Positions 3,762 to 34,289 of a DNA stretch of 64,000 nucleotides are shown here, in pieces. A model generated the notes under the pieces. The model saw nothing but the letters and a program-made list of their open reading frames with translations. It ran no database searches and had not been told where the DNA came from. The translations under genes were made by a program, and so were the position numbers. The stretch is from sequence record NC_111505.1; one strand, 5' to 3'. Source of the DNA: a phage. Numbering within the stretch: position 1 is the stretch's first letter; the number at the start of each line of letters is the position of its first letter.

Positions 3762-4001
3762 ATGTATAAGTCATTTTCAATTTACTCAAGACAGGCAAAA
3801 CACTACACGGAGATTCTGATCACTCAGAAAAAGTCTGTAGAAGGTGAGTGGGAATATCATCATAAAATGTTGCGTCCAGACTGGGTTTTTGATAGACTTA
3901 TTGCTATGATCCCTCTTGGAGAAGTATACCCTCTGACAGGTCATAGGGATGCTTGGGATTTAATTGATTACATAGATTCATTTAAGGAGCCCGGTGTATG
4001 A
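3762..4001 (+). CDS. hypothetical protein (79 aa)
   Basis: Track ORF begins at TTG 3735; first ATG at 3762 has SD AGAGGGGGG. Confidence 0.55.
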   Translation: MYKSFSIYSRQAKHYTEILITQKKSVEGEWEYHHKMLRPDWVFDRLIAMIPLGEVYPLTGHRDAWDLIDYIDSFKEPGV

Positions 4002-4396
4002 AGATTGAGATCACTAAAGAAGGTAAGAAAGTGTCTGGCGATTATGCAACAGTAATTCGGGATGTAATGTTTGAAGTAACCCAGATTGGTACGTCTAAGG
4101 TTGGTCAAACGGTAAGTGTGCAAGGTAATATTGCCACAGGTGAAAAGATAATCATCGTGATCAAAGGACAAGACCCTGTGGAAGGAACAGTGGGCCGAGG
4201 AGGCTACCTGTGCATTTCTGAAGAACCGCGTATGCTGGTTGCTGATGACTCCACAGGTAAAAAGCGGGTATGTAACACGGACGAGGTGATGATTATCTAT
4301 CCAGTCAACCCAGATGATCCGGCAACATGGATTGTGGGAAATGAAATCTTCTCTTTAGAAGAGTTATCCTTCCCAGCCCCGCGCTCTGTTCAGTAA
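3998..4396 (+). CDS. hypothetical protein (132 aa)
   Basis: ATG with AAGGAG 8 nt upstream; overlaps previous stop by 4 nt. Confidence 0.6.
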   Translation: MKIEITKEGKKVSGDYATVIRDVMFEVTQIGTSKVGQTVSVQGNIATGEKIIIVIKGQDPVEGTVGRGGYLCISEEPRMLVADDSTGKKRVCNTDEVMIIYPVNPDDPATWIVGNEIFSLEELSFPAPRSVQ

Positions 4397-4435
4397 TAAT
4401 TTATCTTACCAGGGACGGTAGAAGTAGGAGGTAGC

Positions 4436-4669
4436 ATGAAAGTTAAATTTCTTACAGATTTAGGGTACCCTTCCTTGGTTGACTGCGTTGGTAAAATTGT
4501 GGAAGCAAAACGACTATCTGCAAACGATAATGTTGTCATGGTTAAGGGAAAAGATTTACTATCTGCAGGTGCAGAGTCTGGCAGGATCTCTCCTGACTAT
4601 ACGTATTACCTGTCTTTAAGTAATCTACCAGAACGAGGCGGCAAAGGTCTTGAAGTTGTGGAGGAGTGA
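4436..4669 (+). CDS. small acidic protein, MKVK...VEIVE paralog family
   Basis: ATG with AGGAGG SD; N-terminal MKVKFL and C-terminal ...LEVVEE shared with at least 9 other ORFs in the window. Confidence 0.6.
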   Translation: MKVKFLTDLGYPSLVDCVGKIVEAKRLSANDNVVMVKGKDLLSAGAESGRISPDYTYYLSLSNLPERGGKGLEVVEE

Positions 4670-29937: not shown

Positions 29938-30270
29938 TTAAGGTAACCAGTAAACAATCTCGCCTTTCAGCTTCATGTCGTTTCCAACATAAATTTCCCA
30001 GCCATCCATCTTAGCAACTGTAGGCCCAAAGTCATCCGCACCCCTTACCTCTTTCCAGGCTCCGTAGTCAGGTTGCCAGATATAGAATCCACCTTCTTTG
30101 TCCCATGCTCCGTACACTACGTTTAACAGGTTTCCCATTGCAACAATGGTGGGCCGTGGGAATAATACATCTACAGATGCGCCACAATTTCGGGTATCTT
30201 TTAAGTTGCAATCCCAAAAGATGTCTGCCAGTGTGGCGGCGATAGCTTTACGTCTTTCCAATGTTACCAT
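29938..30270 (-). CDS. hypothetical protein (110 aa)
   Basis: ATG start; weak SD. Confidence 0.5.
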   Translation of the reverse strand: MVTLERRKAIAATLADIFWDCNLKDTRNCGASVDVLFPRPTIVAMGNLLNVVYGAWDKEGGFYIWQPDYGAWKEVRGADDFGPTVAKMDGWEIYVGNDMKLKGEIVYWLP

Positions 30271-30280
30271 GGCACGATAC

Positions 30281-30472
30281 TCACTTGTTGTTAATAAGTT
30301 CTAAAACTTTCTGTCTTACTTTGTCAAGGTCTGTTGATTCAAAAACTGTGCGATATCCCCAACTTTGCCCATAGGAGTGACTGCAATCTCCGTAGCACCA
30401 TTGCTCAATTTGATAGTATTCAAGGAAGGGGTGCTGTCTAACTATGATGCCATCCCGGTTAAAAATTACCAT
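30281..30472 (-). CDS. hypothetical protein (63 aa)
   Basis: ATG start; weak SD. Confidence 0.45.
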   Translation of the reverse strand: MVIFNRDGIIVRQHPFLEYYQIEQWCYGDCSHSYGQSWGYRTVFESTDLDKVRQKVLELINNK

Positions 30473-30535
30473 AATACGTCGCTCTCTGTTAGTCTGTGCG
30501 TATATTATACACTGTAGTTTTCAGATGTCAATCTT

Positions 30536-30787
30536 TTACAGGTTACTCCAGTATACTCGGCATTTACATTTCGGGCAATGAGGCTCTTTTATGTAATAAC
30601 CATCAGTCTTTGGAACACTTTTTGGTGCAGTTTTAAGATTGTACCGAGTAAAACACCGGAAGCAGGTTACCTCTCCAACCTGTTGATCGTTTATCCACGC
30701 GCCAGAGTAAAGCTCTCTCTCTTGTTTCTCATAATTCTCTCCCAAATCCTCTGCAATCTTATACCAAAATCTCCAGCCAGAAAGCAC
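30536..30787 (-). CDS. zinc-ribbon protein (CxxC...CPKC)
   Basis: Track ORF starts at GTG with no SD; may be the frameshifted continuation of the 30756-30929 ORF. Confidence 0.35.
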   Translation of the reverse strand: MLSGWRFWYKIAEDLGENYEKQERELYSGAWINDQQVGEVTCFRCFTRYNLKTAPKSVPKTDGYYIKEPHCPKCKCRVYWSNL

Positions 30788-30929
30788 ACGGGAACACTTT
30801 GATGATTGAATCTTTACCTGGTTCAGCAGTTCTTTTTCCGTAGGGTAGGTAGAAATACCCTCCTGCAGATTCGAACACAGCCCCTTCGGTTGTATCTATC
30901 ACAGCCAGAATTAAGATTTTAGTCTCCAT
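30756..30929 (-). CDS. candidate 57-aa protein
   Basis: ATG with GAGAGAGGGAG SD; ends in a different frame inside the start of 30536-30787. Confidence 0.3.
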
Positions 30930-30982
30930 AGTGCTCCCTCTCTCAATCGTTGTGGTGACTATACCATCTCAAAAACCCGCTG

Positions 30983-31480
30983 TCAACACTTTTTGTACTC
31001 CACCACGATAATATTCATATCAAAAGTGGCAAGGTTAATAACGTCCTCTACGTGCTCCCACTTCAAACCGCCTATGCCGCACCCGATCTTAGGGATGTAG
31101 AATGGTAAAGTCGATCCACTGAATACCTCATTGACTAGCTCAAAGCCTTTCAGGATTGAGAAATATTCAGCATTAGGTCCTGGGTAGAACTGAGTATACA
31201 GATTGATTCCGTAGACAATACCTCTCGGAGATAAGTGCTCCCATCGGGAGAACGCACCCAGTTTACTTAGGCAACCGTGTCTGGTCTCTTTGTCAGCTGC
31301 CAATGCTTGAGGGAACTCACGGGCAATCTGTTTTGCTATCCCCTTACCCATTGTGTGGAAGCAGTTACAACCGTGGATCAGGTGACCAGCACCGCTCTTA
31401 AAAAGGGAGATTAAATCTCCCTCTACAGTATCAATAATCACGGTATGCCAGCTCCTCTTCCGCAATTTCAAAAAACTCAT
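30983..31480 (-). CDS. Macrodomain protein (TARG1/OARD1/DarG-like ADP-ribosyl hydrolase fold)
   Basis: ...VEGDLISLFKSGAGHLIHGCNCFHTMGKGIAKQIAREFP... matches the TARG1-type motif; start uncertain (track GTG 31540; ATG at 31522 or 31480). Confidence 0.5.
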   Translation of the reverse strand: MSFLKLRKRSWHTVIIDTVEGDLISLFKSGAGHLIHGCNCFHTMGKGIAKQIAREFPQALAADKETRHGCLSKLGAFSRWEHLSPRGIVYGINLYTQFYPGPNAEYFSILKGFELVNEVFSGSTLPFYIPKIGCGIGGLKWEHVEDVINLATFDMNIIVVEYKKC

Positions 31481-31856
31481 CCCAACCTTGTGGCATATTT
31501 GAGTTGCCGAAGTGGCTTTCATAGTAAAGGTTCTCACCACTCGGAAGATAGAAATCTGTTACCTCGTAGAATCCACAATCGTCGCACTCACCTTCTTCAA
31601 ACTTGGCCTCAACCTTGATACCGAGGAAGGTGAAAAGTTTATGGATATCTTCAGTTTCGAACTCCCAGTGAATGTTGTTTTCCGCATCGGTGTAGAACTG
31701 GATCAGCAGACCATTGTCCAGTTTACCAAAATACTCTGTGAAGTAACTTCCTTCCCAGAAATCTTTATGACAAATAATATCCATGCGTTTGCCCATAATA
31801 ATGGTGTGAGCGTTTTGGGCATCGTCACGAATCAGTTTTGGCATTTCATAGGTCAT
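31431..31856 (-). CDS. hypothetical acidic protein (141 aa)
   Basis: ATG with CCGGAGAA SD. Confidence 0.5.
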   Translation of the reverse strand: MTYEMPKLIRDDAQNAHTIIMGKRMDIICHKDFWEGSYFTEYFGKLDNGLLIQFYTDAENNIHWEFETEDIHKLFTFLGIKVEAKFEEGECDDCGFYEVTDFYLPSGENLYYESHFGNSNMPQGWDEFFEIAEEELAYRDY

Positions 31857-31924
31857 CTTAGTTCTCCGGGTTCAACAGGTGGTGGCGCTACAGGAAGATC
31901 ATAAAACATGGCTATCACATCCTC

Positions 31925-32122
31925 TTACACAGGAATTGCTTCAAATAGACCGTTATCTATACCGTCCTTCAGATAGAGATTATATTCTATGTCGGTATCT
32001 GTATAAAGGGCAGCATCCAGCATTCTATCTGTGAGTCCATCCATCGGGTGGAGAAACCACCACCCACGCCGGTCAAAGTAACAGCCTGGTGCATCTTCTC
32101 TTACACGGATTCGATAAATCAT
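31925..32122 (-). CDS. hypothetical protein (65 aa)
   Basis: ATG with CAGGAGG SD. Confidence 0.5.
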   Translation of the reverse strand: MIYRIRVREDAPGCYFDRRGWWFLHPMDGLTDRMLDAALYTDTDIEYNLYLKDGIDNGLFEAIPV

Positions 32123-32218
32123 GGGCAGTGGCCTCCTGTTAGTTATACATCCCAGTTTTCTTCGTTCATCACGTCCTCCCGTTCTATGAAGTTATAATTG
32201 CACACCTTTCAACCTGTG

Positions 32219-32635
32219 TCAACAGAAAACTTCAACAAATTCTTCCACAGTTTTAATGTCGTGGGAAAAAGGTTTACGGCTATAACGGGCAATAGCACTA
32301 TCAATCATCGCCCGGTACTCCAAATCTTCAGAATATTTCATGAAGCATTGTAGCGTCTCTGGACAGATAGCTAAATAGCTCCACCACCCCTCTTCAGATT
32401 GGTAGTCGAATCCCATACTCTCCAACCATGAAGCATATACACCTGCACCTTCCAGCCAGTGAGTATTTTCATCAAGAAACTTGTTAACAGTCATGTGAGC
32501 TTCTAAGCATTTATCCAGCTCTTTTCCGTTAACCAGCCACGCACTGACAGTGGCGCATCCAAAGTCCACAGATTGAGTTGATAGATTGTATTGGTCATAG
32601 TTCTCAGGTTTAACAATGATATCTTCTAATGTCAT
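32219..32635 (-). CDS. hypothetical protein (138 aa)
   Basis: ATG with AAAGAGG SD; first gene after the SSB terminator. Confidence 0.6.
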   Translation of the reverse strand: MTLEDIIVKPENYDQYNLSTQSVDFGCATVSAWLVNGKELDKCLEAHMTVNKFLDENTHWLEGAGVYASWLESMGFDYQSEEGWWSYLAICPETLQCFMKYSEDLEYRAMIDSAIARYSRKPFSHDIKTVEEFVEVFC

Positions 32636-32649
32636 TTTTCAGGCCTCTT

Positions 32650-32682
32650 TATACAAAAATGCCCCACCCTTTCGGGTAGGGC
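32650..32682 (-). terminator. Rho-independent terminator (- strand)
   Basis: GCCCTACCC-GAAA-GGGTGGGGC followed by ATTTTTGT; near-identical copy at 44054-44086. Confidence 0.65.
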
Positions 32683-32697
32683 TATGTTAACTAGATG

Positions 32698-33924
32698 TTA
32701 AAAAGGTATGTCATCACAGAACTCGTACTGTGCCGGATTCTGATCCATCGGGTCATCTCCGTCATCATCTACAGGAGGGGCGTCTACAGTGTTTTGCTGT
32801 GGAGTGACTTCCTGTTTGGCAGCTTGAGGTTCTTGATGCTCAGTAGTCCCAGCACCATTCTTGATCCAATCATACAACGGTTCAGCAAGATTAGTCAAGA
32901 CATCTTTTGCCTCTGCAGTAATTGCTGCTGCAAAATCATCAACTTTCGTTTTCTTGTCAATACGGCGACAAGCGTTCAATACCGCATTACCAACACTGGC
33001 ACCTACTTCATCTTCAGTTCGATTGGTGGCTTGAGCGTACTCTTTCTTAAGCTCGATGGTGACCACGTGCAATGTTTTAGCCACATCTAAAGGGCTGTCA
33101 ACCTTGAATCCGCGATCTAGGATGATCTGCAACGCATTAATGCTGTGCCCCGTCTCTACACCAATAGGGTCGTAAGAGGATTTACGCTTTCCACCAGAAC
33201 CTTGAGTACCGTTCTCTGCTTTAGGCGGGTAGGCCTTGAAGCCGCTGATAATATTCCCGGTGTCTTTGTCAACAATAGCTGCAACACGACCGCCAACCAC
33301 CAGGTCTTTAAGCTGCTCATCAGAGACAACCATAGCACCTTCGCCAATCTTGTGGTCATTGACAGTAACCACGTTACCAACAATCTGAGTCACATCCCCA
33401 TAGATGCGTAAAACGTCCTGATTGGCATTCTGCTGGGGTTTCTGCTTCTGGCCTTGTGATTGTGTGCCTTGTTGCTGTTTTTGTTGCTGTGGAGCTGCTG
33501 GAGCCTCTCCTGCCCCCAGCTTAACCATTTTAGCCAATGAGCCTTTGTAGTAGGTCTTACCGTTATGCTCATTTGCCTTTAAAGGAATATTTACGATCCA
33601 TCCTGGCGTTACTGTTTCCCACTTGTCATCAATTTTAACAGAGACGGAATCTTGATGACCAGGTTTGAGCAATTTATCACCCATGCTGATCCAAACTTCT
33701 TCACCACCTTGAAGTAGGTTATCAGAAGAATCCAGTTCAGAAATCAGTAAGGAGATGGTGTGACTGGACTCGATTTTCTTACCTTGCCACACAGTGGTTT
33801 TAATACCTGTTGTAGGATCAGCACCTTTGATAGGTTTGATGCTGACACGTTTAATCATACCGTGAGCCAGTAAAACAGTTTCACGCGGATTCATCGGGTT
33901 GGCAAATTGTTGAATAACGCTCAT
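32698..33924 (-). CDS. ssb: Single-stranded DNA-binding protein (SSB-like, acidic C-terminal tail ...DDIPF)
   Basis: C-terminus DQNPAQYEFCDDIPF resembles the bacterial SSB tail; Gln/Gly-rich linker; ATG 33924 with AAGGAG SD chosen over the upstream extension to 34071. Confidence 0.55.
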   Translation of the reverse strand: MSVIQQFANPMNPRETVLLAHGMIKRVSIKPIKGADPTTGIKTTVWQGKKIESSHTISLLISELDSSDNLLQGGEEVWISMGDKLLKPGHQDSVSVKIDDKWETVTPGWIVNIPLKANEHNGKTYYKGSLAKMVKLGAGEAPAAPQQQKQQQGTQSQGQKQKPQQNANQDVLRIYGDVTQIVGNVVTVNDHKIGEGAMVVSDEQLKDLVVGGRVAAIVDKDTGNIISGFKAYPPKAENGTQGSGGKRKSSYDPIGVETGHSINALQIILDRGFKVDSPLDVAKTLHVVTIELKKEYAQATNRTEDEVGASVGNAVLNACRRIDKKTKVDDFAAAITAEAKDVLTNLAEPLYDWIKNGAGTTEHQEPQAAKQEVTPQQNTVDAPPVDDDGDDPMDQNPAQYEFCDDIPF

Positions 33925-34289
33925 TATTTGTCTCCTTGTTCTTCGTTGGTGTTTGCTGTGTGTGCAAACCCTGCTTGAATTAATTTGTCTTGCACTTGAG
34001 CCAACAGGCCCATTGCAAAACTTGTCGTCCCAGAAAGGGCCATTAGCATATCTCGTTGCTGAGCTACCCAACCTAAGGCATAATCCAAACGACGATATTT
34101 TTCTTCTTCGCGCAGAGCCTGAAATAATTGTTCAGCCTCTGGTTGTTGTGTGAGCTCCTGAAGTCTCCCCATGAAAGAAGAAAGCACTAGCAGAAGAGAC
34201 ACTTGATCTTTACTTAACCCTAAGAAAAATTCTTGAGGTTGTTCTTGCTCGTTCATCGCAACCGACGTTTGATCGTTCATTTGTTCCAT
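33924..34289 (-). CDS. hypothetical Gln-rich helical protein (121 aa)
   Basis: ATG with CGGAGA SD; stop overlaps the ssb start (TAATG). Confidence 0.55.
   Translation of the reverse strand: MEQMNDQTSVAMNEQEQPQEFFLGLSKDQVSLLLVLSSFMGRLQELTQQPEAEQLFQALREEEKYRRLDYALGWVAQQRDMLMALSGTTSFAMGLLAQVQDKLIQAGFAHTANTNEEQGDK

Follow-up and report, generated by a model that had tools for sequence, protein, structure and literature searches.

PhiKZ gp104, the AdfM of chimalliviruses, removes DarT2-installed ADP-ribose from DNA, as shown biochemically, and counters DarTG2 (PMC13309987). In T4, a transposon library on a DarTG2 host returned tk.4 as the single significant match, and a clean tk.4 knockout sensitized the phage to DarTG2; the gene was named adfM (bioRxiv 10.1101/2025.11.20.689424). 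The support for an anti-DarT role of T4 Tk.4 is genetic and comes from that preprint, with no enzymology (bioRxiv 10.1101/2025.11.20.689424). T5 is reportedly restricted strongly by DarTG2 (PMC11825919; bioRxiv 10.1101/2025.11.20.689424, Fig. 2f). The Streptomyces coelicolor protein SCO6735, which has a Gln in place of the Lys, efficiently removes DarT-installed ADP-ribose from DNA thymidine and rescues cells from DarT (PMC9411070). Its activity is nearly lost in the N27S variant, and the Q85A variant is inactive; N27 and Q85 are both required for cleaving thymidine-ADP-ribose DNA and for the rescue from DarT (PMC9411070).

The window analyzed here, a 64,000-nucleotide stretch of phage DNA (NC_111505.1), comes from a Vequintavirus, an rV5-like E. 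coli myovirus. Over bases 30000-33000 it is 90-98% identical to 119 Vequintavirus-like phage records, with the best matches in EPFV3-03/2025 and JES2013. Separately, 16-25 unannotated GenBank records of the MG0656xx series, labeled "Campylobacter phage" with C. jejuni as host, are 91-97% identical to the window over tens of kilobases, and these host labels look doubtful. An earlier note, made from the sequence alone, had placed at 30983-31480 a TARG1/DarG-type macrodomain gene and a candidate eraser of ADP-ribosylation; a minus-strand macrodomain gene is present there, with a corrected start. That this gene encodes a macro domain protein has long been recorded in annotations; near-identical GenBank genes carry that name or are labeled "phosphatase" or "O-acetyl-ADP-ribose deacetylase." The anti-defense family to which it belongs was described in 2025-2026. 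Our literature search found no published experiment on the window protein or on any Vequintavirus macrodomain. We put at roughly 65% the probability that the protein is a thymidine-ADP-ribosyl DNA glycohydrolase that would counter DarTG2. This reading draws on the knockout phenotype of its T4 homologue Tk.4, orthology with the Tk.4 of phage GEC-3S, the residues N26 and Q84, the position of the protein in a tree of its class, the sensitivity of T5, the conservation of the family, and the PhiKZ precedent, each of which is taken up below.

The macrodomain gene encodes a single-domain protein of 152 aa (Table 1; the CDS coordinates include the stop codon). The open reading frame that holds it runs on the minus strand from 31540 to 30983, and the earlier note had ended the gene at 31480. 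We place the start at the GTG because three sets of comparisons agree on it. This GTG is the annotated start of the orthologues in EPFV3, JES2013, and Bas53; all 45 aligned homologues (45/45), T4 Tk.4 included, begin within a few residues of the GTG-start product; and the 69% identical gene of Krischvirus GEC-3S begins at an ATG (MIIDTVKGDL) that directly follows a stop codon and a Shine-Dalgarno sequence, in an upstream context unrelated to that of the window gene. An ATG at 31480 and a GTG at 31540 are ruled out as starts, since in all homologues and in the GEC-3S gene the protein starts at MII. The gene is thus 39 nt (13 codons) shorter than first described, the extra codons belonging to the upstream gene only. 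The overlap with an upstream reading frame that had been remarked on was borne out: the last 11 nt of the upstream gene, its stop included, also belong to the macrodomain CDS, and the two genes are probably translationally coupled. The Shine-Dalgarno-like GAGGAG probably has a role in translation of the macrodomain gene.

Table 1. Features of the macrodomain gene and its surroundings (positions in the window).
Feature	Coordinates	Strand	Basis and remarks
Macrodomain CDS, Tk.4/AdfM-family orthologue	30983..31441	-	ORF, Pfam Macro, phrog_335, annotated orthologues, AF2, identity to T4 Tk.4 and GEC-3S
GTG start codon	31439..31441	-	MIIDTV N-terminus common with GEC-3S; starts annotated in relatives
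Shine-Dalgarno-like GAGGAG (putative)	31452..31457	-	Read from sequence; 10 nt upstream of GTG, within 3' end of upstream gene
Asn26 codon AAC	31364..31366	-	Equals Taq DarG N22, PhiKZ AdfM N23, SCO6735 N27; invariant in 45 homologues
Phosphate-binding loop 1, G32-K-G-I-A36 (family consensus MGAGIA)	31334..31348	-	Conservation in 45 homologues, alignment
Gln84 codon CAG, NLYTQ motif	31190..31192	-	Invariant in 45 homologues; column mapping
Loop 2, G120-C-G-I-G-G125, diphosphate and distal-ribose loop	31067..31084	-	Conservation in 45 homologues, column mapping
Upstream gene, 141 aa	31431..31856	-	phrog_8157; no Pfam, NCBIfam or PADLOC match
HNH endonuclease ORF, 215 aa	28519..29166	-	phrog_953 4e-65; no Pfam match
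Small protein, two genes downstream of macrodomain	30536..30787	-	Phage_zn_bind_2 (PF23903, 1.4e-22)
Large conserved orphan	32698..34071	-	phrog_4477 1.6e-171; no Pfam/PADLOC match; Gln/Pro-rich low-complexity middle

Profile searches and structure prediction, the two computational checks proposed in the earlier note, both upheld the macrodomain call. The protein scores 27.9 bits against Pfam Macro (PF01661; gathering cut-off 22), the reported match covering its N-terminal stretch only, and T4 Tk.4 (27.7 bits) and PhiKZ gp104 (30.1 bits) score similarly. It also matches phrog_335 at 9e-59. AlphaFold2, given an alignment of 45 sequences, produced a model with a mean pLDDT of 96.9. The fold is the three-layer alpha/beta/alpha macro fold, and it includes two Gly-rich ADP-ribose-binding loops. 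In a Foldseek search of the PDB with this model, the best matches were the TARG1, Poa1p, and DarG macrodomains (E about 1e-10 to 1e-9), with TARG1 at 1.8e-10 and a TM score of 0.76-0.82, and a search of the PDB with the family profile returned the TARG1/Poa1p/DarG set again, at 1e-17 to 6e-14. The nearest relatives in both structure and sequence therefore demonstrate membership of the ALC1-like class (TARG1, DarG, SCO6735/BT1257, Poa1p) rather than kinship with MacroD, PARG or viral X-domains, and the window protein stands roughly equally far from all characterized ALC1-like members. The assignment to a TARG1/DarG class consequently stands at the level of ALC1-like fold and profile; the likeness is limited to the ADP-ribose-binding loops, however, and the catalytic residues differ. 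The protein is a stand-alone Gln-type macrodomain of the Tk.4/AdfM family, not a Lys-type DarG/TARG1 enzyme.

DarG membership in particular is ruled out by the single-domain architecture, by the lack of a darT neighbor, and by a score far under the NCBIfam cut-off. Against NCBIfam DarG the protein reaches 46.4 bits (cut-off 250 bits) and matches only profile positions 3-139 of 338, and the PADLOC DarG profile is likewise matched over positions 4-141 of 329 only. DarG has a full length of about 330-340 aa, and its C-terminal DarT-binding domain is absent from the 152-aa window protein. No darT was found near the gene by PADLOC on 12 ORFs or by Pfam on 14 ORFs within about 3 kb.

We compared the active site in one alignment of the window protein, T4 Tk.4, PhiKZ gp104, PDB-verified TARG1, Poa1p, DarG from two species, SCO6735, and BT1257, in which published catalytic residues fall in single columns and the published numbering is reproduced. 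Both glycine loops and an Asn/Gln pair are evident in it. In loop 1, which aligns with the GxG[IV]A loop of TARG1, DarG, and SCO6735, G34 and A36 are invariant among the 45 homologues and G32 nearly so; in loop 2 this holds for G120 and G125, with G122 nearly invariant. The column of Gln84 holds K84 of TARG1, K80 of Taq DarG, K78 of PhiKZ AdfM, and Q85 of SCO6735. The catalytic Lys of TARG1 and DarG is thus absent from the window protein, where this Gln takes its place. Asp125 of TARG1, the partner in its Lys/Asp dyad, is absent as well, Gly124 standing at that position, and DarG likewise has no Asp there. The earlier note had held that absent catalytic residues would speak against an eraser, and for the residues of TARG1 and DarG this is formally the case. 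The loss of the Lys does not refute the function, however, because SCO6735, with the same Gln/Asn pair (Q85/N27 aligning with Q84/N26), hydrolyzes thymidine-ADP-ribose in DNA, and T4 Tk.4 shares this Gln. Two further features of SCO6735, Val/Ile25 and an extended, Lys-bearing mobile loop (K89, K94), were not found. Compared with SCO6735, about 5 residues are missing from the loop that follows Gln84, with a gap at K89, and Lys33 corresponds to SCO6735 K34 at a position that is not conserved in the family. Val25 is replaced by Gly24, a side-chain change that may not matter, since the role of Val25 in SCO6735 is backbone-mediated (PMC9411070).

From these relatives we infer the substrate, the targeted defense, and the catalytic route of the window protein. 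DarT2 of a DarTG2-type host would ADP-ribosylate thymidines in single-stranded phage DNA and thereby block replication. The phage macrodomain would hold the ADP-ribose by its two Gly-rich loops and hydrolyze the thymine-ribose bond, so that unmodified DNA would be restored and free ADP-ribose released. Catalysis would probably be of the SCO6735 type and not Lys-dependent as in DarG and TARG1: Asn26 would lock Gln84, Gln84 would position the distal ribose, and a water would serve as proton donor, replacing the lysine nucleophile. A non-catalytic action, in which the protein binds and inhibits DarT directly or sequesters ADP-ribose-containing molecules, has a precedent in catalytically dead SCO6735 Q85A, which still inhibits DarT in vitro through interaction (PMC9411070). 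We nevertheless consider such an action highly improbable for the window protein, given that N26, Q84, and both Gly loops are strictly conserved as a set across 45 distant homologues, as in an enzyme active site, and that the DarG-like C-terminal DarT-binding domain is missing.

Other substrates of ALC1-like macrodomains are proteins, O-acetyl-ADP-ribose, and ADP-ribose-1''-phosphate. Two of the labels carried by GenBank relatives would make the protein a metabolite enzyme, either a Poa1p-like ADP-ribose-1''-phosphate phosphatase or an O-acetyl-ADP-ribose deacetylase, but those legacy names come from the old "A1pp" domain label and not from assays. Of the residues studied by mutation in the Poa1p structures (H23, S30, F152), H23 is conserved in the window protein, S30 is replaced by T30, and F152 stands where the Tk.4 family has the invariant Gly124. 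Poa1p also has Ser84 in the column of the invariant Gln84. To our knowledge there is no obvious source of ADP-ribose-1''-phosphate in this infection, and a metabolite enzyme would leave the phenotype of T4 tk.4 on DarTG2 unexplained; we regard this explanation as improbable.

Homology to the genetically validated T4 Tk.4 (NP_049723.1) is demonstrated by a full-length alignment at 39% identity (E 4e-40), which covers query residues 1-150, and by the motifs HGCNCFHTMG, NLYTQFxPGPN, and IGxGIG, Gln84 included, which both proteins have. At this identity the substrate specificity of the window protein could differ from that of T4 Tk.4. The Tk.4 of Krischvirus GEC-3S (L086 1501..1956), whose gene occupies the vs-[tk.4]-tk slot and is syntenic with T4 tk.4, shares 69% identity with the window protein but only about 40% with T4 Tk.4. 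Because this syntenic Tk.4 is nearer to the window protein than to that of T4, the window gene lies within the range spanned by bona fide tk.4 orthologues, and the macrodomain gene has probably moved between phage families, Straboviridae and Vequintavirinae. A neighbor-joining tree of the ALC1-like class, which with 15 taxa is indicative only, groups the window protein with T4 Tk.4 and bacterial orphans at 100% bootstrap. This clade joins SCO6735/BT1257 at 76%; PhiKZ gp104 and DarG form a group of their own at 100%, to which TARG1 attaches at 84%. Homologues were found with the protein by tblastn in 2782 of 50,697 phage records, including Tevenvirinae genes labeled tk.4.

Neither tblastn (E <= 1) nor the family HMM (E <= 10) found a Tk.4-family member in positions 1-112000 of T5; these cover the whole genome, its right terminal repeat being, by annotation, a copy of the left one. 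The same pipeline recovers the window gene at 1.5e-64. The sensitivity of T5 to DarTG2 and its missing homologue agree with the anti-DarT reading, as one data point that carries no statistical association. An unrelated observation concerns the T5 RefSeq record, in which T5.105 (L089 7588..8094) is labeled "Sir2 (NAD-dependent deacetylase)" beside the real Sir2-like T5.102. T5.105 gave no match to the macrodomain family profile, and its N-terminus, FLDIDGVLN, resembles a HAD-type phosphatase motif.

The family extends beyond phages. Scanning one genome per species gave 80 loci with homologues 33-43% identical to the window protein, in Rhodobacteraceae, Hyphomicrobiaceae, Planctomycetota, Kingella, Nitrospirales, and others, nearly all of them single-domain proteins of about 150 aa. 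A link to darT was sought in a Pfam survey of 112 neighboring ORFs at 30 loci and rejected: no recurrent DarT/DUF4433 appeared among the best 25 of 118 neighbor families, a coverage that a single DarT neighbor could escape. The neighbors were instead ileS (in four loci), rpoC, icmF, and assorted hydrolases. Homologues lie directly downstream of ileS, and co-directional with it, in three Hyphomicrobiaceae-type genomes and in Jannaschia (L012, L013, L027, L074, about 4000..4460), and a Ruegeria homologue lies downstream of rpoC (L005). The ileS/rpoC setting is a conserved housekeeping context without darT, and the bacterial members look like SCO6735-style chromosomal orphans rather than the antitoxins of toxin-antitoxin systems. 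The ancestral role of the family is therefore not demonstrably anti-DarT, since its bacterial homologues adjoin ileS, rpoC, and icmF and not darT. We also considered whether the T4 adjacency of tk.4 to vs, a ValRS modifier gene, might be tied to these aminoacyl-tRNA synthetase neighbors; this was ruled out, as the bacterial synthetase is IleRS and the gene upstream in the window is unrelated to Vs.

These housekeeping contexts speak for a further explanation, namely that the window protein is a broader or different ADP-ribosyl hydrolase, acting mainly on proteins or RNA modified by other host toxins and defenses or by phage enzymes, with its anti-DarT2 activity absent or incidental. SCO6735 and TARG1, of the same structural class, de-ADP-ribosylate proteins too (PMC9411070), and the rough equidistance of the window protein from all class members points the same way. 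Conversely, the sole known phenotype of the family is DarTG2-specific, with tk.4 the only significant match in the T4 screen (bioRxiv 10.1101/2025.11.20.689424), and the protein-directed Lys/Asp dyad of TARG1 is missing. Furthermore, neither an ADP-ribosyltransferase nor a companion NADAR (AdfN-like) protein was found among the 43 window ORFs of 110-270 aa, and no ADP-ribosyltransferase was found among the neighbors of the gene. We judge a broader hydrolase unlikely, and retain the thymidine-ADP-ribosyl DNA glycohydrolase as the preferred reading.

The macrodomain gene lies downstream of the replication module within a long run of small leftward genes, at roughly 21.7-37.5 kb, and this block consists of early or accessory genes. 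The earlier note had set the macrodomain next to a gene resembling a homing endonuclease. The HNH gene is real, but it is not adjacent, lying 1.8 kb away with seven small ORFs between. A functional tie between the two was rejected on this distance and on their distributions, the HNH gene being present at high identity in only 3 phage records against 119 for the macrodomain region, and the HNH gene looks like a sporadic homing-endonuclease insertion. EPFV3, the closest relative over the HNH stretch, has no CDS of HNH size annotated there. JES2013 (L085 5197..5820), VB-EcoM-WM, ECML-10, and others carry an extra "endonuclease VII" gene of about 640 bp that is absent from the window; its site is between the homologues of window genes 32219..32635 and 32698..34071. 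The 32635/32698 junction is a second variable endonuclease insertion site of the same accessory block. For the Phage_zn_bind_2 gene, relatives annotate a shorter, 64-aa form. The longest ORF of the large orphan gives 457 aa against about 408-423 aa annotated in relatives, so the true start probably lies downstream of its TTG codon.

Confirmation of the function would add rV5-like phages to the T4-like and PhiKZ-like phages that carry an enzymatic eraser of DNA ADP-ribosylation by DarT2. rV5-like phages are employed for typing E. coli O157 and as components of therapy cocktails, and a confirmed function would help to predict their host range among E. coli that carry DarTG2. The Gln-for-Lys site that the window protein has in common with T4 Tk.4 and SCO6735 suggests that the commonest phage anti-DarT macrodomains may use a chemistry other than that of the DarG antitoxin. 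It is a possibility that they are distinct from DarG both mechanistically and evolutionarily. A different chemistry would matter for inhibitor design and for annotation rules, under which such genes are now labeled "phosphatase."

PhiKZ AdfM appears to be an independent acquisition under the same name as the Tk.4 type. More speculatively, "AdfM" may cover two independent inventions, one in which PhiKZ captured a DarG macrodomain with its Lys, and another in which the Tk.4 type arose from bacterial housekeeping orphans and works by a Lys-independent, SCO6735-like Gln/water mechanism; we hold this scenario as tentative, and somewhat doubtful. Were two such origins true, the Tk.4 type may take ADP-ribose from DNA and also from protein or RNA, and it may be a general eraser acting against several ADP-ribosylating defenses beyond DarTG2.

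Among the characterized proteins of the class, DarG2 (T. aquaticus, 5M31/5M3E; M. tuberculosis, 5M3I) has the catalytic K80 where the window protein has Gln84. Human TARG1/OARD1 and yeast Poa1p, at 26-27% identity, have His23 and the Gly loops in common with it, whereas K84/D125 of TARG1 and S84/F152 of Poa1p are replaced by Q84/G124. SCO6735 and Bacteroides BT1257 are ALC1-like proteins in which, as in the window protein, Gln replaces the catalytic Lys, although they are only 25-27% identical to it. PhiKZ gp104 is, like the window protein, a phage-encoded single-domain macrodomain, but the two are about 20-23% identical, and gp104 has the Lys of the DarG-like type (FPTK78) and undergoes import into the phage nucleus. 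T4 Tk.4 stands in a vs-tk.4-tk.3 neighborhood, whereas both genes flanking the window gene are orphans, the upstream one being unrelated to Vs, which holds the equivalent position in T4. Although T4 Tk.4 comes from Straboviridae and the window protein from Vequintavirinae, both are phage-encoded, single-domain proteins of similar size (155 and 152 aa) encoded among small early genes.
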